The notes: a model not told the origin generated them from the sequence alone. A stretch of 64,000 bases of DNA from Patescibacteria group bacterium (GCA_021731245.1 JAKFXT010000002.1:24164-88163), one strand, 5' to 3'. Counted from the first letter of the stretch, positions 3,263 to 60,567 are shown. Numbers and translations: made by a program.

Positions 3263-3457
3263 AATTTTTCGCACTGGTGGACCTATGGGGAATCGGACCC
3301 CAAATTCGATCATGCCATGATCGCGTATTACCACTATACTATAGGCCCTTGAACAAGCTTTTAGTTTTTAGCTACTAGCTTTTAGGAAAGAGTATACTAG
3401 AAATTATTACCTTTCAAATACTTGACTTGAAAGTATTAGGGGGGAGATAATTAGAAT

Positions 3458-4190: not shown

Positions 4191-4331
4191 TGGATCCCGT
4201 AGTAGAAAATGGCATTAGAGGAAGGCGGGGGATACAAAATATTACAATGGAGTCGAATATTAAAAGCAGAATTAATTTGAGTGGTCATATTGCTCTATAA
4301 AAGAGCGATGCCATTTTTCACTACCGGATGG
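4191..4331 (+). repeat. Copy 1 of a ~140-bp inverted-repeat-flanked element. Its last bases form the atpB start codon.
   Basis: Left arm TGGATCCCGTAGTAGAAAATGGCATTAGAG and right arm CTATAAAAGAGCGATGCCATTTTTCACTACCGGATGG form a ~28-bp imperfect inverted repeat. The element ends ...CACTACCGGATGG with the ATG at 4328. Confidence 0.85.
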
Positions 4332-5401: not shown

Positions 5402-5541
5402 TGGAATCCTGTAGTAGAAAATGGCATTAGAGAGAAAGTGAAAATATAAAAAATTATGTTAAAGTCGAATATTAGTAATTTAATTAAAATAAACTGGTAA
5501 CAGCTCTCTAAAGAGCGATGCCATTTTTCACTACGGGATGG
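5402..5541 (+). repeat. Copy 2 of the inverted-repeat element. It ends on the atpF start codon.
   Basis: Same terminal arms as copy 1 (…GTAGTAGAAAATGGCATTAGAG … AAAGAGCGATGCCATTTTTCACTACGGGATGG). Its internal ~60 bp are nearly identical to copy 3. Confidence 0.85.
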
Positions 5542-12868: not shown

Positions 12869-12975
12869 GGAGGTGTCTCCTTGTGGCTGTCTTATGCCAA
12901 TAAAACATATAAAATATCTATAATCAAACTAGGAAAAATATTGTCATATTGCCTATAAACAAGTATATTTTCTTA

Positions 12976-15825
12976 ATGATTTCGTACGACCATAAGAAAA
13001 TTGAAAAAAAGTGGCAAGCTATTTGGGAAAAAACCAAAGCTTTTAAAGCTAAATTTCCTTCAAAAACAAAGAAATTTTATGGTCTTATAGAATTCCCGTA
13101 CCCATCAGGTGATGGACTCCACGTGGGGCATATTAGAAGTAATACCGCTATGGATATTATTTCTAGAAAGCGTCGTGCTGAAGGATATAACGTACTTTAC
13201 CCAATGGGCTGGGACGCCTTCGGACTTCCTACAGAAAACTATGCGATTAAGACGGGAATTCATCCTGCTATTGTCACGAAGCAAAATACAGACACATTCC
13301 GAAAACAATTAAAAAATTTAGGATTCTCTTTTGATTGGGATAGAGAAATAAATACAACGGACCCAAAATATTATAAATGGACACAGTGGATTTTCTTACA
13401 ATTATTTAAAAAAGGCTTAGCTTATAAAGCCACTATACCTATTAATTGGTGTTTGAACTGTAAAGTTGGTTTAGCGAACGAAGAGGTGGTAGACGGAAAA
13501 TGCGAAAGATGTGGGGGACCAACAGAAAAAAGAGACAAAGAACAGTGGATGCTTGCTATTACTAAGTATGCTGACCGATTGGATAAAGATTTGGATTCCG
13601 TTGATTATTTACCGCAAATAAAAACACAACAGAGAAATTGGATAGGGCGTTCTGTAGGGGCTGAAATTGAATTTAAAATAAAAGGGACTGATAGTAGTTT
13701 AAAAGTTTTTACTACAAGACCAGATACGCTTTTTGGTGCCACATATGTAGTAATTGCACCAGAGCATAAAATTATAGATACGCTTAAAAATAAAATTAAT
13801 AATGCTCTTGAAGTGGGTATGTATGTGCAACTTGCAGCCAATCAAAATGAGATGGAACGTCTTGCAGAAGGTAAGGAAAAAACAGGTGTAGAAATAAAAG
13901 GAATTAAAGCAATTAATCCTGCAAATGGAGAAGAGCTTCCTGTTTATGTAGCTGACTATGTTTTATCTACATATGGTACGGGGGCAATAATGGCAGTTCC
14001 AGCGCACGATGAGAGGGATTATGAATTCGCTAAGAAGCTTAGTTTGCCAATCAAAGAAGTTGTAATACCAAGCAGAATAGATAGAAATAATCCACCGCGT
14101 AAAGAAGGTAAAAAAACAGTAGAAAGGACCAATGTTCATGCCATTATTAGAAATCCAAAGAATGGAAATATTTTGTGTTTAAAATGGAAAAAACAACCGT
14201 GGATTACTTTTCCTATGGGTGGAGTTGAAAAGGGAGAGGATTTGGTGGAAGCGGCTAGACGTGAGGCACGAGAAGAAACCGGCTATACCAACTTAAAGTT
14301 GGTGAAAGTCATGGGAGGTCTTGTTAAAGCTGAATATTTTGCGACGCATAAAAATGAAAACAGAGTGTCTTGGACCAACGCCGTAATGTTTGATTTAAGT
14401 GATGAATTTCAAGAAGAAAGGAGCGAGGAAGAAAAAAATAATTATGACCTTGTTTGGTTTTCTAAAAATGAAATAACTTATCCAAAAATAGTCCACGCAG
14501 AACTCGATATATGGTTATCACGTTGGGATAAAGAAGATTTTACATATATAGAGGAGGGTGTACTTATAAATTCTGGAAAGTTTGATGGAATGGAAAGTGA
14601 AAAAGCTAAGTCAGAAATTACAAAATTTGTTAAAGGTAAAAAAGTTACTAAATTTAAACTCCGTGATTGGGTTTTTTCCCGTCAAAGATATTGGGGGGAG
14701 CCGATACCTGTAATTAATTGTAAGAAATGTGGGCTTGTTCCAGTGCCCGAAAAACAACTTCCTGTATTACTGCCTGATGTAAAAAATTATAAGCCAACTG
14801 ATAATGGAGAATCTCCACTTGCAAATATTAATTATTGGGTAAATGTGAATTGCCCAAAGTGTAAAGGTAAAGCAAAAAGAGAAACTGATGTTATGCCAAA
14901 CTGGGCCGGGTCCTCTTGGTACTTCCTTCGTTATACGGACTCAAAAAATAATAAGGAATTTGCCTCTAAAAAGGCGCTTAAATACTTCACGCCCATTGAT
15001 TGGTACAACGGAGGAATGGAACACACTACACTACATCTTCTTTATTCAAGATTTTGGCACAAGTTTTTGTTTGATTTGAAATTAGTGCCAACAAAGGAAC
15101 CTTATCAAAAAAGGACTTCACATGGACTTATTCTTGCAGAAGGAGGAGTTAAAATGAGCAAGTCAAAAGGGAACGTTATTAACCCAGACACAATAGTAGA
15201 AAATGTCGGGGCGGACACTCTTCGTTTGTATGAAATGTTTATGGGTCCATTTGATCAAGCTATTGCTTGGAATGAAGACAGTATGGTTGGATGCCGCAGG
15301 TTTATAGAAAGAGTTATAAAACTAAGTGAAAAAATTAAGAATATACCAAATAAAAATGGAGATGAAACACTTGAAGTCTTAATAAATCAAACTATAAAGA
15401 AGGTGACTGAAGATATTGAGAGTATGAAGTTTAATACTGCCGTGAGTGCCATGATGATACTCTGTAATGAATTTGAAAAAAGAGAATTTATTTCAAAAAA
15501 TGAATTTGAAGTGTTTATAAAAATACTTTCTCCATTTACACCGCACATAACAGAAGAGCTCTGGCAGAACATTGGCAATAAAGGAAGTGTCCATTCTGTA
15601 AAATGGTCCGTATTTAATAAAAATAAATTATTAAATGATGAAGTTAATATTTCAGTTTCGGTGAACGGTAAAAGTAGGGGAATCGTAAAAGCAAAAAATG
15701 ATGCCACGGAAGAAGATGTTATACGTTTAGCAAAGAAGAATTCTGAAATAGAGAAGTGGATTAAAGAGTATGAGAAAGTTATATACGTTAAGGGTAAAAT
15801 TATAAATTTCGTAACAGGTAAATAA
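12976..15825 (+). CDS. leuS: Leucyl-tRNA synthetase with a Nudix hydrolase domain inserted after the editing-domain HDxRD motif. An alternative start exists at 12949.
   Basis: HIGH motif (HVGH), KMSKS, two Cys4 zinc knuckles, the TTRPDT editing motif and AHDERDYEFA. A ~160-aa insert (14065-14550) carries a perfect Nudix box, GGVEKGEDLVEAARREAREETGY. Confidence 0.9.
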   Translation: MISYDHKKIEKKWQAIWEKTKAFKAKFPSKTKKFYGLIEFPYPSGDGLHVGHIRSNTAMDIISRKRRAEGYNVLYPMGWDAFGLPTENYAIKTGIHPAIVTKQNTDTFRKQLKNLGFSFDWDREINTTDPKYYKWTQWIFLQLFKKGLAYKATIPINWCLNCKVGLANEEVVDGKCERCGGPTEKRDKEQWMLAITKYADRLDKDLDSVDYLPQIKTQQRNWIGRSVGAEIEFKIKGTDSSLKVFTTRPDTLFGATYVVIAPEHKIIDTLKNKINNALEVGMYVQLAANQNEMERLAEGKEKTGVEIKGIKAINPANGEELPVYVADYVLSTYGTGAIMAVPAHDERDYEFAKKLSLPIKEVVIPSRIDRNNPPRKEGKKTVERTNVHAIIRNPKNGNILCLKWKKQPWITFPMGGVEKGEDLVEAARREAREETGYTNLKLVKVMGGLVKAEYFATHKNENRVSWTNAVMFDLSDEFQEERSEEEKNNYDLVWFSKNEITYPKIVHAELDIWLSRWDKEDFTYIEEGVLINSGKFDGMESEKAKSEITKFVKGKKVTKFKLRDWVFSRQRYWGEPIPVINCKKCGLVPVPEKQLPVLLPDVKNYKPTDNGESPLANINYWVNVNCPKCKGKAKRETDVMPNWAGSSWYFLRYTDSKNNKEFASKKALKYFTPIDWYNGGMEHTTLHLLYSRFWHKFLFDLKLVPTKEPYQKRTSHGLILAEGGVKMSKSKGNVINPDTIVENVGADTLRLYEMFMGPFDQAIAWNEDSMVGCRRFIERVIKLSEKIKNIPNKNGDETLEVLINQTIKKVTEDIESMKFNTAVSAMMILCNEFEKREFISKNEFEVFIKILSPFTPHITEELWQNIGNKGSVHSVKWSVFNKNKLLNDEVNISVSVNGKSRGIVKAKNDATEEDVIRLAKKNSEIEKWIKEYEKVIYVKGKIINFVTGK

Positions 15826-50836: not shown

Positions 50837-51316
50837 ATGTCACACATAAACGAGAAAATTGACTACACAGTGGATGTTTATATTGTCTACAAAAATAAAG
50901 TACTGCTCCGTTTACATGAAAAATACAATGTTTGGCTTGGAGTTGGTGGCCACATAGAACTTGATGAAAATCCAAATCAAGCAGCAATTCGTGAAGTAAA
51001 AGAAGAAGTTGGTCTCGACATAACTATTTTTAATTCCTTAGATTTAGAAATATCTAAAATTAATAAAGAAAAAAAGAATGGAAAATATTTAGAATTAATA
51101 CCTCCAGTCTTTATGAATATGCATCCAATAGATGATATTCACAGTCATGTATCTTTAATATATTTCGCTGAAGCCAAGAATGATGAGGTTATTCCAGAAA
51201 ACATTGATGATCAATGGAAATGGTTGTCCAAAAAAGAATTAGAGGAAATGCAAAATGAAATTCATCCTCAAGTTTATCTCTATGCAAACAAAGCATTAGA
51301 GTGTTTGACAAATTAA
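50837..51316 (+). CDS. Nudix hydrolase
   Basis: Perfect Nudix box, GGHIELDENPNQAAIREVKEEVGL (Gx5Ex7REUxEExGU). Confidence 0.75.
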   Translation: MSHINEKIDYTVDVYIVYKNKVLLRLHEKYNVWLGVGGHIELDENPNQAAIREVKEEVGLDITIFNSLDLEISKINKEKKNGKYLELIPPVFMNMHPIDDIHSHVSLIYFAEAKNDEVIPENIDDQWKWLSKKELEEMQNEIHPQVYLYANKALECLTN

Positions 51317-51394
51317 ATAATAAATTGTAAAGTTTTTAAAGCGTACAAATTGGGCAATCTTGCCCAAACCAAACAAAGAAAGGTGGATAAAACC

Positions 51395-51826
51395 ATGGAA
51401 GAAGACCCGGGCTTTTTGAGGAGGAATCTCCTCTACAAGTATCTGGGAGATGTGGAGCCATACATCAAGCGCTATTACTGGGTGGCCATCATCTGCGGAG
51501 TGGTCCTCTGGTACGGCTGGCTCCCCAGCGGTTGGGTCAAGGCCTCTACTTGGGTTGCCTTCATCCCAACGCTTTTCGTTGCCTTATTTCACTTCGTTTC
51601 CGCTTACAACACAAGACGTGAAGAAAGACAGGAAATTGAGGAAAGAAAATCGAAGAAAAACAAAAAACCAAGCAACGAGGACACTGTCATCAGCCTCGAG
51701 ACAAGAAGAATTCGGGCGGCGAAAAAAAGGCAGGAGGAAGCCCAGCAGGCCGCCGCAAAAAAGGAAGGGGAGAGAAAAGAGCAGGAGAAACAAGACCACC
51801 TGGACTTCACCCAGGTCCAGAAGTAA
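51395..51826 (+). CDS. Hypothetical protein with two TM helices and a highly charged K/E/R-rich tail. Start chosen at the SD-preceded Met.
   Basis: AAAGGTGGA sits 7 nt upstream of the ATG at 51395. Followed by the terminator GGCCGGAAGC-ccagc-GCTTCCGGCC plus a T run. Confidence 0.5.
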   Translation: MEEDPGFLRRNLLYKYLGDVEPYIKRYYWVAIICGVVLWYGWLPSGWVKASTWVAFIPTLFVALFHFVSAYNTRREERQEIEERKSKKNKKPSNEDTVISLETRRIRAAKKRQEEAQQAAAKKEGERKEQEKQDHLDFTQVQK

Positions 51827-51842
51827 GAACACCAAGAACACC

Positions 51843-51880
51843 CCGGCCGGAAGCCCAGCGCTTCCGGCCATTTTTTTATT
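51843..51880 (+). terminator. Rho-independent terminator (plus strand)
   Basis: ggccggaagcccagcgcttccggcc followed by atttttttatttt. Confidence 0.65.
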
Positions 51881-51894
51881 TTATATAAAAACAA

Positions 51895-51917
51895 ACGCCC
51901 CGACGCGACGTCGGGGC
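51895..51917 (-). terminator. Rho-independent terminator for the convergent minus-strand gene
   Basis: gccccgacg-cga-cgtcggggc followed, on the minus strand, by a T-rich run. Confidence 0.55.
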
Positions 51918-51921
51918 TGGC

Positions 51922-52179
51922 TTACTCCTTCCATGAAAAGGTTTCTCCTTCCTCAATGCCAGCGAACTTGGATTCTTTGACTTCGACCTTGAACTCGCCG
52001 TTCTGGTCCTTCTCGTAGACATAGACCAGCACCGTTCCTTTCGGTGTGATGGGGGTGTCGAGGTTTCCGTATTTTATGACGAGATTTATTTCCAGTTTTT
52101 CCCCCGTTTGGATGACAGTAGCCCCGTACAGACCGCTTTCGAGGTCAGACGATGGCTTAAGCAGGGAAATATCGGGCAT
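51922..52179 (-). CDS. Hypothetical 85-aa protein
   Basis: AAAGGA SD, GC-rich codon usage, and its own terminator. Confidence 0.45.
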   Translation of the reverse strand: MPDISLLKPSSDLESGLYGATVIQTGEKLEINLVIKYGNLDTPITPKGTVLVYVYEKDQNGEFKVEVKESKFAGIEEGETFSWKE

Positions 52180-52248
52180 ATAATGTCCTTTGCAGAGGGT
52201 CAGAATTGACTAATTTGCACATTATCTTGTTTTACAAAAAGTGTCTAT

Positions 52249-52278
52249 TCATTACCCTTTGACCAAATAAGGAGTCGA
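52249..52278 (+). promoter_or_regulatory. Candidate promoter for the 52330 gene. It is embedded in a repeated 17-mer.
   Basis: TTGACC-N18-TAATGT. The -35 lies inside TTACCCTTTGACCAAAT (52242-52258). Confidence 0.4.
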
Positions 52279-52329
52279 GAGTAATGTATTTTTAGGCAGT
52301 TCAACTAATTCCGACAGGAGGATTCCGCA

Positions 52330-52740
52330 ATGGCTGCAATGAAAGCTCCAAAAAACAAACCTTTCGCAACCAAAGCGAAAGTCCTTTTCTATGATGGATT
52401 GAGAGTCTTTGCCACCGAAGTGCCACACGGCCTCAAAGTGGTTTTCTGGCCGATTGAGAGTCAGCGTCATTACAAAAATACGCCCGCAACGATGGGGAGA
52501 TTGATTCTCTTGACCAATGCTCCTCGCGAAAGTCACGTGCTGCTCGAAGTGGATGGCGTTCCAAGAAAAGAATGTGGGCGCATGATGCGAATTCTTGGCT
52601 TTTGCTTCATCAGCGGAGACCACCGCGAAGGACATTTCTTGTCCTCTCGCAAAATGTCGAGAAACCATCGCAGTCACGATTCTCGCAACAAACTCATCAA
52701 CCAGTGGGTCAAAGGAGAAATCGACACCTGCTCACGTTAA
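52330..52740 (+). CDS. Hypothetical 136-aa protein
   Basis: Strong RBS ACAGGAGGattccgcaATG and a clean downstream terminator. The overlapping antisense ORF lacks both. Confidence 0.5.
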   Translation: MAAMKAPKNKPFATKAKVLFYDGLRVFATEVPHGLKVVFWPIESQRHYKNTPATMGRLILLTNAPRESHVLLEVDGVPRKECGRMMRILGFCFISGDHREGHFLSSRKMSRNHRSHDSRNKLINQWVKGEIDTCSR

Positions 52741-52745
52741 AATTC

Positions 52746-52790
52746 AACCGCTTCACAGGAAACCTGGGAGCGGTTTTCTGTTTTTATAAT
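52746..52790 (+). terminator. Rho-independent terminator
   Basis: AACCGCT-tcacaggaaacctggg-AGCGGTT followed by ttctgttttt. Confidence 0.6.
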
Positions 52791-52798
52791 TGAAAAAA

Positions 52799-52966
52799 TT
52801 ATTCAGGTTTCTTTTTATAAACTTCGTAAGCTGAATAAAGAACGAGCCAGACACAAAATATATAGAGCCAAGTATCATCTTTGCCGTTTACCCACCAAGC
52901 GATTACAAGAAAAGCAAAGACCCCGATGAAGACGAACATCATTCCGTATTTCTTTAAGATATCCAT
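52799..52966 (-). CDS. Possible 55-aa two-helix membrane peptide (MDILKKYGMMFVFIGVFAFLVIAWW...)
   Basis: An ATG-initiated ORF below the track threshold. Hydrophobic, found by manual translation. Confidence 0.3.
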   Translation of the reverse strand: MDILKKYGMMFVFIGVFAFLVIAWWVNGKDDTWLYIFCVWLVLYSAYEVYKKKPE

Positions 52967-53001
52967 AATATTTCAATTGTTACAGATGGATTATTTGTTT
53001 T

Positions 53002-53205
53002 TTATGAACTACCATCACCACCGCCACTGCCGCCATCACCAGTAGAGCCTCCGTCAGTACTTTCAGAGCCATTTGCTCCATCTGCTTCAGAGCCTGACTC
53101 TTCAGAATCATCTGAGGGAAAGACGGGAGCAGTATAGGCGCCTCCATCTCCACTATCCTTATTAGGTTTCTTAGGTCCAAACATTTTTTTGAATATTTCA
53201 AACAT
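53002..53205 (-). CDS. Hypothetical small acidic Gly/Ser/Asp-rich protein (67 aa)
   Basis: Low-complexity acidic tail (DGGSTGDGGSGGGDGSS). Preceded on the minus strand by a ~290-nt GC-rich leader. Confidence 0.35.
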   Translation of the reverse strand: MFEIFKKMFGPKKPNKDSGDGGAYTAPVFPSDDSEESGSEADGANGSESTDGGSTGDGGSGGGDGSS

Positions 53206-53284
53206 ATAACTAATTATATCAGGCTTTGTATCTTACCTCCTTGACCAAATAAAAAAAGCCGCACCCAATTTATTTTTATTATAA

Positions 53285-53490
53285 ATTCTGGGGTACGGCT
53301 GGTATTGCGAGCCAACAAACGAGCTGACATCGAGAGTGTTTCGAGCAAAACAACGAGAAGAACAACGAGTCGCGAATGACCCCCGAGGAACCACGACGCG
53401 CATCAGACCTTGAAAGAACTTGGGGACGGCCGTCCCTTTCGAACTCCCAGAAGACCTGTTGGCCTAGCGTCAACCGTAACCCCTCGGAGG
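53285..53490 (-). ncRNA. Candidate structured GC-rich non-coding RNA or long 5' leader. Family unknown.
   Basis: Upstream minus-strand promoter TTGACA-N18-TATTTT (plus coordinates 53497-53526). The ends pair (GGGGTTACGG with CCGTACCCC). Internal hairpins include GGGACGG/CCGTCCC. No convincing ORF. Confidence 0.3.
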
Positions 53491-53551
53491 TATATAGAAA
53501 ATAACAATTAGATGACTTTCTGTCAATTCACCCTCGAAAAAGGAGATTGTC

Positions 53552-54037
53552 TCACAAAATAGAAAAAGTAAGTGTCATTGGAGAATGGAAAGGTGTGGCA
53601 CTCCATTGCCCCTTTAACTTACGAAAACATTCTTGCGTCATTCTAATAGATTCCTCAATAAGCCAAGGCGGCAATGGTTCATGATAACTATTATATAAAT
53701 TATTAAAGCTCTCCATCGCTTCAATGGGAGTAATTAAATCTTTCATTACAGCCGTTAGTACTCCTACGACTCGCTCGGTATTTACGATCTCAGAATCTCG
53801 CAGTGGGTCTGAGCTACCTAGCCCAGAAGAAAGCTCAGCGTAAGATTTTCCTGATGCCAATAATCCAAAGAACGAATATTTAAGGCCCACCTGTGTTTCA
53901 AGTGCATAATGAATCAAGTCATGCTCAAGGGTGCTCTTCGTCTCATTTTTTACTATATCCCAGTCTCCATCTCCTTTTCTATATTCAAACATGTGATGGG
54001 TCGGGGATATTCGGGTAAAACGGATCGTGAGAATCAT
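53552..54037 (-). CDS. Hypothetical 161-aa protein
   Basis: ORF in the island with no recognised motif. Confidence 0.45.
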   Translation of the reverse strand: MILTIRFTRISPTHHMFEYRKGDGDWDIVKNETKSTLEHDLIHYALETQVGLKYSFFGLLASGKSYAELSSGLGSSDPLRDSEIVNTERVVGVLTAVMKDLITPIEAMESFNNLYNSYHEPLPPWLIEESIRMTQECFRKLKGQWSATPFHSPMTLTFSIL

Positions 54038-54129
54038 TCACTTATTTTATCAAATTATGTAGAACCTTGAAAAAGGAAAGAAAAGTGATAGAAATAAAGG
54101 TAGACCACCTCACAGGAGGGAGATAACAC

Positions 54130-54225
54130 ATGGAAGACCACGGTGATACGATTCCGCCAGTCGGCTCTTATCAGACGATTGCCTTCGCGGTTTGCCACCC
54201 AGTAAAATTCGTACAGTCGCTCTAG
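54130..54225 (+). CDS. Possible 31-aa peptide (MEDHGDTIPPVGSYQTIAFAVCHPVKFVQSL)
   Basis: Strong RBS CAGGAGGGagataacacATG. Upstream TTGAAA-N17-AGAAAT at ~54066. A downstream plus-strand terminator at 54268-54296. Confidence 0.3.
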   Translation: MEDHGDTIPPVGSYQTIAFAVCHPVKFVQSL

Positions 54226-54267
54226 AGAATGTTTACCGAAGCGGCTGGCTGGCAATAGCCCACCTTT

Positions 54268-54296
54268 TTCTCAACCCCCCGCTTCGGCGGGGTTTT
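54268..54296 (+). terminator. Rho-independent terminator (plus strand)
   Basis: CCCCCCGC-ttcg-GCGGGG followed by ttttttc. Confidence 0.6.
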
Positions 54297-54370
54297 TTCT
54301 TTACCCTTTGACCAAATGGGGGATTAGGTGGCAAAAGATATAAAACAGGATGATGTGCGGAAAGAAAAAA

Positions 54371-54676
54371 TTACCTCTTCTTCGGTTTTGGTTTCTCAGG
54401 TCCTTTCTTGTCAGAATCTCCAATATCTTGTATCGGAGACATTAACGGTTCATTCGAAAGCCGAGCGTCAAATTTTTGTCCAGTTTTCGCTTCGATTTCT
54501 TCTACTTGTTTTAAAAGCAATCTTCCTATTTGTTTGGCGGTGGCTAAGTGGAAAAGAAACGTATATTTCTCTGTCCCTGACCTCAACCAGAACTGAAGTA
54601 AGCCATTCACAGCCTGAGCTTTAGCTTCGTCGACAAAAATCTTTTCAGGGCCATTTGTAAATATAGGGTCTTCCAT
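54371..54676 (-). CDS. Hypothetical 101-aa protein with a basic C-terminal tail. Apparently leaderless.
   Basis: Near-consensus promoter TTGACA-N16-TAGAAT whose -10 ends ~7 nt before the ATG. No SD. Confidence 0.5.
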   Translation of the reverse strand: MEDPIFTNGPEKIFVDEAKAQAVNGLLQFWLRSGTEKYTFLFHLATAKQIGRLLLKQVEEIEAKTGQKFDARLSNEPLMSPIQDIGDSDKKGPEKPKPKKR

Positions 54677-54682
54677 ACAAAC

Positions 54683-54710
54683 ATTCTATTACTGTGAATA
54701 ATAGTGTCAA
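54683..54710 (-). promoter_or_regulatory. Near-consensus sigma70 promoter (TTGACA-N16-TAGAAT) for 54371..54676
   Basis: Plus-strand tgtcaa at 54705-54710 and attcta at 54683-54688. Part of a repeated 25-nt module that also occurs at 53521-53545. Confidence 0.45.
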
Positions 54711-54750
54711 TTACCCTTGAAAAAGGAGCTGAGGGGAGTAGGATGGGGGA

Positions 54751-55503: not shown

Positions 55504-55751
55504 GGTTTCTAACTTTTTTTTAATGAACGTGTGTTATGCCAAAGAAGATATGCCAAGCCATTTTTATAGTTACTTTTTCATATAAAAATAGGGAAGTGAC
55601 TCCCCCGATTTTATAAGAAATTTTTTAAAGAATTTATTTTGTAATTAATTCAAGTAGATTGTGCGATAGGAAAGTGATCTACGTTATCTTTTACGAATGT
55701 CGGACTTTGATTACTATTGCTTTTGCGACATTCGAGTTATAATTAGTAGAT

Positions 55752-56426
55752 ATGACCCTTCGTACACAAAAGACTGGGACCCAATCACCTTGGACGACAG
55801 AAGAACTTAAAAGTGGTTTATTACATTTTCATAAAGAAAATGGTCATTATCCAACTTCAACAGAAATTGATAACTATCAATATTTACCTTCAGCAAGAAC
55901 AATTGAAAGAAGTCACGGTGGGCTCGTTGAATTGAGGAAAAAATTAGGCCTTGGCGATGAACATGACTACAGATTAGGCTCTCACAGCTCAAAACGAGCT
56001 CATACCATCAATACCAGAGCTCACAAAACAGAAGATATTGTCTACCAATTTTTAATTGAAAAGTTTGGCAAAGAATTTGTGCATCGTGAATACTTTTTTA
56101 CTGATGATCACCGTACAAGAGCTGATTTCTTCGTCTACGATGAAGGAAAGGGCTTCTGTGTAGATGTATTCTACCCAAACTCAACAAGAAACCTCACAGG
56201 ATGCCTCAATATAAAGTTAAATAAATATAATAAAGAATACATGGGCTTTGTCCCATATCCAGTCATTTTCCTACAAATGAATGAGAGTATAGACGATGAT
56301 TCATTAAATAAACTCCTGAAAAATAAAAAGCGCCAATTATTAAGTAATCAATACCTAATGGGTTGGGAAGCATTCAAAGAATTCACTAAATCTAGAAAAG
56401 CTTTGTCTGTTAGAAGAACCAAATAA
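55752..56426 (+). CDS. Hypothetical protein, possibly endonuclease-like (Vsr/PD-(D/E)xK-like core)
   Basis: RADFFVYDEGKGFCVDVFYP resembles the ...DF.....VDG..WH... core of Vsr/DUF559-type endonucleases. The N-terminal W..EEL......G..P helix is HTH-like. Weak. Confidence 0.35.
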   Translation: MTLRTQKTGTQSPWTTEELKSGLLHFHKENGHYPTSTEIDNYQYLPSARTIERSHGGLVELRKKLGLGDEHDYRLGSHSSKRAHTINTRAHKTEDIVYQFLIEKFGKEFVHREYFFTDDHRTRADFFVYDEGKGFCVDVFYPNSTRNLTGCLNIKLNKYNKEYMGFVPYPVIFLQMNESIDDDSLNKLLKNKKRQLLSNQYLMGWEAFKEFTKSRKALSVRRTK

Positions 56427-56655
56427 TATTAAAGGGGAGTATCGTTTTAATTAAACCCCACACCCCCTTTACTTCTATAGCTTATAGCTATGTCGCACAA
56501 GCTTCCCGCGTAAAAGATATATTGTGCGACGTTACCTCTATAGAGCCTTTGACCCATCAATACAACCTTAAAGACCCCTTCCCTTACTTAATATGTTTAT
56601 ATTGTTTTGGATTCCAGGCTGGCGTACAAGATATAAATATTTCCATATTCCCTTG

Positions 56656-57358: not shown

Positions 57359-57665
57359 ACATTTCTAATTTTATTTTTTGAAGCTCCTCAATTGTTTTTG
57401 AATCAGTAATTTTTGTAAATCTAGGAAAAGTTTTTCCATCTTTTTCTACCATACCCATCCACATATCTAATGGGCGCACAACATGTGTCGCCGGAGCTAA
57501 AAAATCATTTTCATAAAGAGGTCTGTATATGACGGTGTAATTTCGTTCTTCAGAATGAAGTGCGACTCCAACATATTCATAAGAATAGTTATTCATATCC
57601 CCTTTCGGGTCGTGTTTGTAATGATAATAGAATCCTTTTTCCGGAATTTTTTTAATTATCTCCAT
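57348..57665 (-). CDS. Small conserved protein, paralog 1 (resembles DUF1653 by recall)
   Basis: KGFYYHYKHDPKG...YRPLYE...VRPLDMWMG.VEKDGKTFPRF.KITD. About 60% identical to the adjacent gene. Confidence 0.45.
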   Translation of the reverse strand: MEIIKKIPEKGFYYHYKHDPKGDMNNYSYEYVGVALHSEERNYTVIYRPLYENDFLAPATHVVRPLDMWMGMVEKDGKTFPRFTKITDSKTIEELQKIKLEMYGE

Positions 57666-57990
57666 ACATTTCTTTTTTAGTTTTTTCCAATTCTTTTATA
57701 ATTTTTTCATCAGTAATCTTGGCAAATCTAGGAAATGTCTTCCCATCTTTTTCTACTATACCCATCCACATATCTAATGGACGAACATCATACATTTTAC
57801 CTGCCTTGTAAACTGCCGCCTCATATAATGGTCTATAAATTATCATATTCTCATCTTCCGGTCGGCAATCTTCTTCTGTGTGCACTCCTGCGCCAATATA
57901 TTCATAAGCGTAATTATTTACACTCCCCTTCGGGTCGTGTTTGTAATGATAATAAAATCCTTTTTCAGGAACTTTAGTAGGTATTTTCAT
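57652..57990 (-). CDS. Small conserved protein, paralog 2 (tandem duplicate)
   Basis: Same motif set as 57348..57665. The two genes overlap by 14 nt. Confidence 0.45.
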   Translation of the reverse strand: MKIPTKVPEKGFYYHYKHDPKGSVNNYAYEYIGAGVHTEEDCRPEDENMIIYRPLYEAAVYKAGKMYDVRPLDMWMGIVEKDGKTFPRFAKITDEKIIKELEKTKKEMYGDN

Positions 57991-58050: not shown

Positions 58051-58506
58051 CTACTTTGCTTTGGGATATTTGGGATACCAGAATGGATGCCACGTCCACG
58101 GCAAAATCTTGTAGATATAGCTTGAGTGCCATCCAAACCTGGTGATGATCCAACGATTCTGGTCTTCGATGTCTTTCCAGCCGTTGTCATACCCTATTTG
58201 CCACCCCGAATCTCCCCAGTCCACCCCGATGCGAGTTCCAGAAGCTCCTCCTGGGGCCTCAAACTTCCACTTGCGAAAGTTGAACTTGAAAACCGCGAAG
58301 TGGATACGGCCCTTATAGGCGCTTCCCATAGGCCACTGCCAGAAGTAGAGATCCCAGCTAAAGAAGCCGTAGAACCTCCAAGAAACGAGGGGCGGAATGG
58401 AGTTGTTCAAGAAGAAGTCCTTGAAACTCCACCAAAACGACCTGAACCTGAAACCAATGCGACTTTCAATGCGACGGAACGCTTCCAAACAAATCGAGTT
58501 TCTCAT
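58051..58506 (-). CDS. Hypothetical Trp/aromatic-rich protein (14 Trp in 151 aa), GC-rich
   Basis: SD GGAAGGGG sits 8 nt upstream. Terminators lie on both sides. The overlapping plus-strand ORF looks like a wrong-frame reading. Confidence 0.5.
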   Translation of the reverse strand: MRNSICLEAFRRIESRIGFRFRSFWWSFKDFFLNNSIPPLVSWRFYGFFSWDLYFWQWPMGSAYKGRIHFAVFKFNFRKWKFEAPGGASGTRIGVDWGDSGWQIGYDNGWKDIEDQNRWIITRFGWHSSYIYKILPWTWHPFWYPKYPKAK

Positions 58507-60132: not shown

Positions 60133-60567
60133 GTGATTTTGGACAACAAATTCTGCACCCACACACAGGAGATTCCACCAATGGAACCCGTTTGCTCAGT
60201 AAACACCTTCAAACAGCTCATGAGCTTAATCGTCCTTATTGCTTTTTTCGGGGCAATCATCGGAATGGTTGTCTTCTTCATCACCCGCCGGCAAAATGCG
60301 GGTACCATTCTGGAAACTGCCGCTTGGAGCTCACAATATCTGACTCCTGGAATTTACAGATTTCAAATAATCAATCGAAGTCTGGGGTTAGTCGCGCTTC
60401 AAAAAACTTCAGGCGATACCTTGCGTGTCTGGAAGTTTACAGCAGGGTTGCCATCTGCTTTTGACGGAAGTGACCAGGACGAGGGATTGATAACATACGA
60501 CCCGGGAGTCGATTCGATACATTACAGTGACAGATGGGCAAATACACCCAAGCTGGTTGGTGCTTAA
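60133..60567 (+). CDS. Hypothetical membrane-anchored protein
   Basis: One TM helix (LMSLIVLIAFFGAIIGMVVFFI). Followed by the terminator GCCGCCTACGT-ggaa-ACGTAGGCGG. Confidence 0.4.
   Translation: MILDNKFCTHTQEIPPMEPVCSVNTFKQLMSLIVLIAFFGAIIGMVVFFITRRQNAGTILETAAWSSQYLTPGIYRFQIINRSLGLVALQKTSGDTLRVWKFTAGLPSAFDGSDQDEGLITYDPGVDSIHYSDRWANTPKLVGA

Follow-up and report, generated by a model that had tools for sequence, protein, structure and literature searches.

We analyzed a 64,000-nucleotide (nt) stretch of a Patescibacteria (candidate phyla radiation, CPR) chromosome, called the window below, and focused on a cluster of eight small genes at positions 51350-54730, called the island. The island belongs to a familiar class of feature, the terminus-proximal plasticity zones, here filled with ORFan small proteins, and it holds one puzzle: a foreign codon and Shine-Dalgarno (SD) style has persisted in it. 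We favor, with somewhat better than even confidence, the reading that the island is the oldest layer of a variable zone between a conserved gene, p104, and a probable dif site, and that it is a mosaic of an old core and later cassettes.

Elsewhere, the window carries the ATP synthase operon, aminoacyl-tRNA synthetases, ScpAB, MraY/FtsW/MurG, glutamyl-tRNA synthetase (GluRS), and an M23 peptidase, in a host background of 0.36 G+C content (GC) and ~0.28 GC at third codon positions (GC3). The closest public genome is the groundwater metagenome-assembled genome (MAG) H41-bin038_1 (locus L004), whose GluRS is 84% identical; ~50 further matches were from Paceibacteria/Parcubacteria-type MAGs. L004 is collinear with the window over 40-50.8 kb and 58.7-63.8 kb at 74-86% nucleotide identity, and its p104 is followed immediately by 1.3 kb of GC-rich DNA (0.44-0.54, against 0.36 for that genome), in which there are three plus-strand units and no others. 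They are the orthologs of p143, p136, and p31, at the same site and in unchanged order, and the three promoters, the SD positions, the leader hairpin of unit 1, and all three terminators are conserved between the two genomes. What the window has in addition is a NUDIX gene, p85 with its terminator, a block at 52.79-54.07 kb (p55, p67, a small RNA [sRNA] candidate, and p161), and p101. An 8-nt sequence, TTGAAAAA, lies on both sides of this block and, as read by eye, is present as a single copy in L004.

Between the window and L004, housekeeping genes have accumulated 0.9-3.7 synonymous substitutions per site (dS; saturated) and ~0.1 nonsynonymous substitutions per site (dN). Amino acid identities of the core proteins were 34% (p143), 46% (p136), and 74% (p31) versus 69-89% for ten flanking housekeeping genes, and p143 and p136 showed a dN of 0.47-0.67, a proportion of synonymous differences (pS) of 0.78-0.81, and 48-55% nucleotide identity. 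From these comparisons, the core proteins appear to evolve 4-6 times faster than housekeeping proteins. The core nevertheless shows the same preference for C-ending codons in both genomes, with a GC3 of 0.53-0.64 in the window and 0.48-0.63 in L004.

Judged from sequence features, a distinct dialect (a leader, an SD, C-ending codons, and a GC-rich terminator) is seen in half of the eight genes (p143, p85, p136, and p31), and the other half (p55, p67, p161, and p101) is host-like in lacking an SD and in using host codons. SD duplex energies were -7.1, -4.6, -10.3, and -10.8 kcal/mol for p143, p85, p136, and p31, respectively, and +0.2 kcal/mol or above for each of the other four. GC3 was 0.64, 0.62, 0.53, and 0.59 for the same first four genes versus ~0.28 in the host. 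When codons were pooled, third-position C made up 0.33-0.35 of the core in both genomes, 0.13 of the host, and 0.17 of the accessory genes; the ATC share was 0.53 in core genes versus 0.07, and the TTC share was 0.73 versus 0.26. A -10 box lies 6-7 nt before the ATG of p67, p161, and p101, and none of the four dialect genes has one 4-12 nt 5' of its start.

In the host, an SD/anti-SD duplex of -6 kcal/mol or stronger precedes 7% of 59 genes versus 13% of random 20-mers. A -10-like hexamer ends 4-12 nt 5' of the start in 17 of these 59 genes (2-7 genes in other 9-nt distance bins), and because of this clustering the first genes of operons look leaderless; overall, host initiation appears to be mostly leaderless or SD-less. 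A few internal operon genes have kept an SD (AAGGAG before 5986, AAGGA before 38188), and the host ribosome can therefore probably still use one. Host ribosomal-protein genes showed no preference for C-ending codons (third-position C of 0.11).

An earlier note on this DNA, made before these comparisons, had described a single coherent island with a jump to roughly 50% GC and had proposed to ask by synteny whether it is absent from related genomes. The core proved to be syntenic and orthologous in L004, and the island is a mosaic of two gene styles. The region is atypical in composition, as the note held, and the quantitative check showed that GC is not uniform, yet GC was only 0.442 over 51350-54730 as a whole (0.363 in the rest of the window) and 0.41-0.43 in 1-kb windows across it. 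Values of 0.48-0.535 were limited to sub-blocks at 51.4-52.2, 52.3-52.75, 53.0-53.2, 53.3-53.5, and 54.1-54.3 kb, which are separated by AT-rich stretches at the host level. In tetranucleotide usage, 51350-54730 is the most deviant 3.4-kb stretch of the window (L1 distance of 0.27 versus a mean of 0.163, SD 0.028). The genes are indeed small, at 143 (158 from a TTG start), 85, 136, 55, 67, 161, 31, and 101 amino acids (aa). The strong ribosome-binding sites reported for them were found for p143, p136, and p31, with a weaker one for p85, and are lacking in the other four genes; the rarity of SDs before housekeeping genes was borne out by the 7% given above. Terminator-type hairpins with 6-8 G:C pairs and a T-run number four in the island (51845-51869 on both strands, 51897-51917, and 54277-54292), with a fifth, weaker one at 52755-52781, and no hairpin with more than 4 G:C pairs was found in 20 kb of housekeeping genes; of the "several" convergent terminator pairs claimed, we could find one clear pair only. 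A patch of 50% GC upstream, at 49.9-50.4 kb, is not part of the phenomenon: it is the conserved catalytic domain of the M23 peptidase, which is GC-rich at codon positions 1-2 in both the window and L004 and has a GC3 of only 0.39-0.40.

We propose that the core consists of three autonomous one-gene units (p143, p136, and p31) that would have been present in the common ancestor with L004. In each, a sigma-70-type promoter would be followed by a leader of 30-55 nt containing a strong SD, a gene that favors C-ending codons, and an intrinsic terminator rich in GC, and every unit was shown to have the sequence elements of a promoter and terminator of its own. Composition and grammar point to a foreign origin of the core, probably a mobile element. 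Its genes would be translated by SD-dependent initiation, still within the ability of the host ribosome, and the lineage-specific cassettes p85, p67-p55, the sRNA candidate, p161, and p101, most of them in host grammar, would have been inserted later between the core units. DNA may have entered by Xer-dependent recombination at or near dif, with no need for an integrase of its own; by analogy, entry in the style of integrative mobile elements exploiting Xer (IMEX) or of pdif modules is plausible (PMC6744903; PMC12907356). Insertion or deletion mediated by short repeats, such as TTGAAAAA around the 52.79-54.07 kb block, may also have contributed. The encoded proteins are probably accessory, of a cell-envelope or interaction type.

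Unit 1 begins with a predicted plus-strand promoter at 51305-51333 (TTGACA-17-TAAAGT; 10 of 12 consensus matches), followed by a leader of ~55 nt with a 5' hairpin (TTGGGCAatctTGCCCAA) and the SD AAAGGTGGA, both conserved in L004. The promoter block at 51305-51372 is 85% identical over 68 nt to L004 13172-13239, where the promoter reads TTGACA-17-TAAGGT. Homology between the window and L004 resumes exactly at this -35 box, which overlaps the stop codon of the NUDIX gene in the window and that of p104 in L004; the NUDIX gene (50837-51316) is AT-rich and absent from L004. The product of p143 (51395-51826, plus strand) has a hydrophobic, membrane-like N-terminal half, a Lys/Glu-rich tail, and a conserved C-terminal LDFTQ(V/I)QK; its ortholog (L004 13259-13660) shares the C-terminus at 30-34% aa identity overall. 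The terminator of p143 (51845-51869; 10-11 pairs, 8 G:C) can be read on both strands, and its L004 counterpart, GGCCGAACGC/GCGTTCGGCC, differs by paired changes as read by eye. Together with the minus-strand terminator of p85 (51897-51917; 9 pairs, 8 G:C), it forms the sole clear convergent pair. The gene p85 itself (51922-52179, minus strand) is a window-specific GC-rich cassette with a weak SD, AAAGGA, and an acidic product; it is absent from L004, and among 5.8 billion proteins only p85 itself was found, making it an ORFan.

Unit 2 has a predicted plus-strand promoter at 52259-52287 (TTGACC-17-TAATGT), which lies within a repeated motif, TTACCCTTTGACCAAAT, and reads TTGACC-17-TAATCT at the same position in L004. 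Its gene, p136 (52330-52740, plus strand), follows the SD AGGAGG and encodes a basic protein with an isoelectric point of 10.2. The ortholog at L004 13793-14206 is 46% identical, with a conserved C-terminal block, and p136 and this ortholog were the only family members found in 1.84 billion representatives and a 5.8-billion index; two weak phmmer matches (P0020 and P0021) were spurious hits to low-complexity repeat proteins. The terminator of unit 2 (52755-52781, plus strand) is nearly identical in L004 (window 52661-52782 versus L004 14127-14258).

Unit 3 would be transcribed from a predicted plus-strand promoter at 54067-54094 (TTGAAA-16-TG-a-TAGAAA), conserved in L004 and set in a quasi-palindrome, CCTTGAAAAAGG, which also provides the -35 element of the divergent p161 promoter. 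Its gene, p31 (54130-54225, plus strand; 31 aa), has the SD AGGAGGG. Compared with L004, p31 showed 74% aa identity, a dS of 1.1, and a dN/dS of 0.14, with changes mainly at third codon positions, indicating that the unit encodes a peptide. The L004 open reading frame (ORF) has 61 aa, with TGG where the window has the TAG stop. The ~30 nt past this TAG are nearly identical in both genomes (54222-54260 versus L004 14417-14455), and the L004 ORF continues through the terminator; the TAG/TGG difference could reflect either a recent nonsense change or a constraint at the RNA level 3' of the peptide. The terminator (54277-54292, plus strand; CCCCGC-TTCG-GCGGGG followed by T6) has an identical stem and a different loop in L004. 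We also noted a -35-type motif, (TT)ACCCTTGA(A/C)(A/C)AA, in six plus-strand copies (52253-52269, 53234-53250, 53530-53545, 54063-54078, 54301-54317, and 54713-54728). Three copies would drive the plus-strand genes p136, p31, and p250, and the other three, each placed immediately 3' of a unit on the minus strand (sRNA candidate, p161, and p101), would yield antisense transcripts. The copies could also be operator sites.

The interleaved cassettes all lie on the minus strand. The p67-p55 operon (52799-53205) is window-specific and host-style, has host-like codons and no SD, and is absent from L004. The product of p67 (67 aa) is acidic, Gly/Ser-rich, and predicted from sequence features to be disordered, and its gene has a TATAAT 7 nt before the ATG, of the leaderless type; p55 is, on the same kind of features, a 55-aa membrane peptide. 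A candidate sRNA of ~240 nt runs from 53491 down to 53252 (53252-53526 with its promoter) and is GC-rich, with no convincing ORF. Its predicted promoter (TTGACA at 53526-53521, 17 nt, TG-TATTTT) has 10 of 12 consensus matches plus the TG, and the RNA would form a 113-nt hairpin and a terminator-like stem with U7. The predicted fold is strand-specific: the minus strand reached -82.9 kcal/mol with a z of -2.4, compared with a z of -0.6 on the plus strand. No relatives of the candidate were found; Rfam searches of two GC-rich non-coding or small-ORF stretches at gathering and permissive thresholds returned only sub-threshold chance matches; and sRNA-target duplex predictions against the island mRNAs, made by long-sequence duplex folding, were indistinguishable from shuffled controls.

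The window-specific accessory gene p161 (53552-54037) has a leaderless-type promoter, with TAAAAT 6 nt before the ATG. It belongs to an uncharacterized family of 17 proteins of ~160 aa (including P0003-P0018) with invariant R-x-SPTHH, HDxxHxxxE, YxEL, PxW, and GxW motifs; the public annotation of p161 begins 15 codons too late according to the family alignment. An AlphaFold2 model reached a pLDDT of 91.9 and had no significant match to a PDB structure. On the contigs that we retrieved, the homologs reside in DNA of 54-67% GC, next to a HIT protein or after obg, with non-Patescibacteria neighbors, and this kinship is the best direct sign of cross-phylum transfer. The last cassette, p101 (54371-54710 with its promoter), is window-specific and host-style; its predicted promoter (TTGACA at 54710-54705, 16 nt, TAGAAT) has 11 of 12 matches, with the ATG 6 nt further on. 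p101 is absent from L004 and has no viral relatives.

The right-hand boundary of the variable zone is a candidate dif site at 56506-56531 on the plus strand (CCGCGTAAAA-GATATA-TTGTGCGACG), 1.8 kb from the end of the island and outside it; the 28-bp site as a whole is ATGTCGCAAAAGATATATTGTGCGACAT. The consensus tGTCGcAAAA-GaTATA-TTGTGCGAC was present in 27 loci, once per locus and always shortly 3' of p104 (L004, 16327-16352). The site is a quasi-palindrome with an 11+6+11 layout, which is typical of Xer/dif sites, and it is conserved across loci whose GluRS is just 40-84% identical. With a position weight matrix (PWM), the window site scored 37 bits; the next score, 10 bits, was from the opposite strand of the same site, and shuffled sequences reached at most 16 bits. 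GC skew was positive to the left and negative to the right of the site in 15 of the 18 loci whose flanks were long enough, and the site lies where genes from both sides converge. From its layout, single copy, conserved position, and skew, we take it to be a probable chromosome dimer-resolution (dif) site. Matches to the canonical proteobacterial and Firmicutes dif patterns were at chance level only, and the lineage's own site came from comparing relatives; our literature search found no paper on dif sites or SD use in Patescibacteria.

In most of the 12 other relatives where both p104 and the candidate dif site were found, only 16-370 nt separate them; L005 has 1648 nt, L004 3155 nt, and the window 5678 nt, and so the DNA in between is inserted. 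On the other side, the window has 2208 nt between the site and p152, the next conserved gene, compared with 118-1242 nt elsewhere. The ancestral order would have been gltX, M23 peptidase, p104, the site, and p152, and this lineage would have gained DNA on both sides of the site. Half-sites of the form TTGTGCGA occur in the window only at 55659, 56493, and 56522. Between them, with the inverted one at 56493, lies p224 (55752-56426), which encodes 224 aa with a weak match to an HNH-associated repeat family. A 62%-identical homolog has the same arrangement in another relative (L032 12305-13117), and in L004 the half-sites are 155 nt apart with no gene between them; p224 has the appearance of an insertion associated with dif. 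We discarded GC-biased gene conversion close to dif as a general explanation of the composition, as the neighboring inserted genes (NUDIX, p250, and p224) have a GC3 of 0.24-0.29.

To the right of the candidate dif site, two further GC-rich ORFs were seen at 58051-58506 (minus strand; GC3 0.66) and 60133-60567 (plus strand; GC3 0.50), with no tblastn homologs in L004 or any other fetched locus. The ORF at 58051-58506 comes with an SD, strong terminators on its flanks, and a leader that shares the TAATGT -10 box; its product would be Trp/Phe-rich and basic, and its reality is uncertain. Also on this side are the accessory minus-strand DUF1653 gene and an apparent shorter tandem paralog (57380-57650 and 57652-57990), beside a NADAR-domain gene. 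A distant relative carries, between the candidate dif site and p152, a ~470-nt GC-rich block with no ORF (L077 13395-13860; 0.53-0.54 in a 0.35 genome), which matched nothing in Rfam, resembled neither the window nor its sRNA candidate, and may be a structured RNA.

Elsewhere in the window, an almost identical 25-nt sequence occurs at 4303-4327 and 5513-5537 (gagcgatgccatttttcactacCgg / ...acGgg), directly 5' of the start codons of the ATP synthase a and b subunit genes. In the leucyl-tRNA synthetase (12949-15825), residues 393-512 form an inserted NUDIX domain (Pfam E = 2e-15). The only tRNA in the window is at 3275-3348. A replication origin at the skew change near 3.5 kb was rejected, since the change only marks where three minus-strand genes give way to the ATP synthase operon.

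The earlier note recognized no protein families, and our searches agree: no island protein matched Pfam, NCBIfam, PHROGs, or PADLOC. The same searches speak to phage and to defense or toxin-antitoxin membership, with no PHROG match for the former and no PADLOC, Pfam, or NCBIfam match for the latter. Nor was there an INPHARED blastn match, a conserved DNA motif in IMG/VR, an IMG/VR relative of p136, p161, p85, or p101, or a hit in a PDB sequence search with p136, p85, and the p161 family. An integron would be an awkward fit, given that no IntI was found, each unit has its own promoter, and the repeated motifs are of the -35 type rather than attC-like imperfect palindromes. The island resembles IMEX (CTX-phi/TLC-phi of Vibrio) and the pdif modules of Acinetobacter in being integrase-less accessory DNA beside the probable chromosomal dif site, made of small self-contained gene modules in either orientation; however, IMEX and pdif modules have dif or pseudo-dif sites at their borders, which the island and its cassettes lack, and no phage or plasmid genes were found in the island (PMC6744903; PMC12907356; PMC11705084).

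As in classical islands and terminus-proximal plasticity zones, the content is variable and rich in ORFans, the GC skew changes sign, and GC, tetranucleotides, and codons are atypical, although for GC3 this applies to four genes and the other four are host-like. Unlike a classical island, it has no tRNA target or flanking direct repeats, and no integrase or transposase was found with Pfam, NCBIfam, and PHROG, so this statement of the earlier note survived re-examination. With respect to absence from close relatives, the core is present in L004 and only the interleaved cassettes are absent there. The newest part of a classical island is expected to be the most atypical; here, it is the oldest part, found in the sister species as well, that deviates most. 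A third comparison is with the SD-bearing rpsU and prfB of Bacteroidia, where likewise a few strong-SD genes stand out in an SD-avoiding genome, a pattern suggesting that SD/anti-SD pairing is set aside for special regulation (PMC9976891; PMC10798248; PMC13000453). Ribosomes in Bacteroidia are "blind" to the SD, and the strong SD of rpsU autoregulates through ribosomes lacking bS21 (PMC9976891; PMC7797042; PMC13000453). Those genes encode conserved translation factors with a known mechanism, sequestration of the anti-SD by bS21/bS18/bS6, whereas the genes here are lineage-specific ORFans in an apparently mainly leaderless host.

An abrupt change of composition in a MAG could signal a chimeric assembly or a contaminant contig fragment, as the earlier note had cautioned. 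Independent Logan contigs from two runs matched the window at 100% identity: L003 (49565-51503) crosses the left border, L084 (53559-55141) and L085 (54109-55144) the right border, and L001 (52126-53497) and L002 (52221-53237) cover the interior. The junctions recur in an independent MAG. As far as assemblies of the same two runs can tell, chimerism is excluded, and we give this explanation practically no weight. The earlier note itself had named two options. One, an unusual regulatory regime, may apply, since the foreign codon style and the SD positions persist in both lineages although synonymous sites are saturated. The other, horizontal acquisition, we took as one recent arrival of a 3.4-kb island from an SD-using donor of ~50% GC. 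Horizontal acquisition as such is consistent with the distinct composition and grammar, with the absence of the interval from most relatives, and with the non-Patescibacteria kin of p161. Atypical GC, tetranucleotides, and codon use, and absence from distant relatives, would suit a recent and coherent arrival as well; yet the core is syntenic in L004 despite saturated synonymous sites, half of the genes are host-style, and the searches yielded neither a donor nor a mobility gene or boundary repeat, all of which make this version very unlikely.

Two other explanations concern how the core style has lasted. It could be a native module whose style is kept by selection in a private expression regime, such as one set by anti-SD availability or by unusually stable mRNAs. 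Both lineages have retained the codon style, the SD positions, the unit-1 hairpin, and the terminator stems although housekeeping dS is 0.9-3.7, SD-like sequences are depleted before host genes, and Bacteroidia offer a precedent. Poorly conserved p143 and p136 proteins (34-46%) would be odd beside strong selection on synonymous sites, however, and ribosomal-protein genes without the C-ending preference argue against host-wide translational selection for the style; moreover, same-style genes found only in the window (p85, perhaps 58051-58506) look like arrivals rather than old residents. We hold a native module to be unlikely. In a more specific form, by analogy with the bS21/rpsU circuit, selection, not recent transfer, would keep a dif-adjacent set of lineage-specific accessory genes in a private grammar that gates its expression, for example through anti-SD availability; this seems distinctly improbable to us, and if it were true, the survival of the codon style while synonymous sites became saturated would be the mark left by such selection. 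Alternatively, alleles could have been replaced repeatedly, with promoters and terminators serving as recombination anchors while coding cores were swapped for divergent alleles from a GC-richer pool, such as an unsampled mobile element or another host; the foreign composition would thereby be maintained and the proteins would look hyper-divergent. Such anchors would fit the promoter and terminator blocks being 73-85% identical when p143 and p136 are 48-55% identical in nucleotides (pS 0.78-0.81), the recurrence of promoter motifs at six sites, and TTGAAAAA flanking the 52.79-54.07 kb block. But no member of such a pool turned up among 15 billion proteins or in viral, plasmid, and metagenome collections, and p31 diverges like the flanking genes (dS 1.1); we rate this account, too, as rather improbable.

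Several observations weigh against our preferred reading of an old core with later cassettes. The promoters, transcription starts, and sRNA are predictions. With one close relative available, insertion in the window and deletion in L004 are indistinguishable for the interleaved cassettes. No donor, phage, or plasmid relative of any GC-rich gene was found in viral, plasmid, and metagenome collections, and composition is all that speaks for a foreign origin of the core. A PWM scan of the 64 kb revealed no dif-like remnants above background at 51.3 kb, 54.7 kb, or the cassette junctions. Finally, our own two-state estimate of amelioration (equilibrium GC3 of 0.28; 0.43-1 substitutions per site per lineage) predicts a GC3 of at most 0.33-0.49 even from a start of 0.9, and the observed values are 0.48-0.64. 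Because the predicted decay exceeds that observed, an old import passed on by vertical descent alone falls somewhat short of explaining the data; the style may in addition be under selection, or coding cores may have been replaced from a pool richer in GC.

Overall, our reading of the island as an old core with later cassettes would mean that accessory DNA in the tiny, streamlined genomes of Patescibacteria can accumulate layer upon layer and without integrases at a single hotspot, which lies between a conserved gene and the probable dif site. The 28-bp site is a candidate dif and terminus marker for a large uncultured group and would be useful for assessing genome completeness and orientation and for finding similar hotspots. 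If selection is responsible for the persistence of the core style, an organism whose initiation is mostly leaderless may use SD-dependent translation as a separate channel of regulation.

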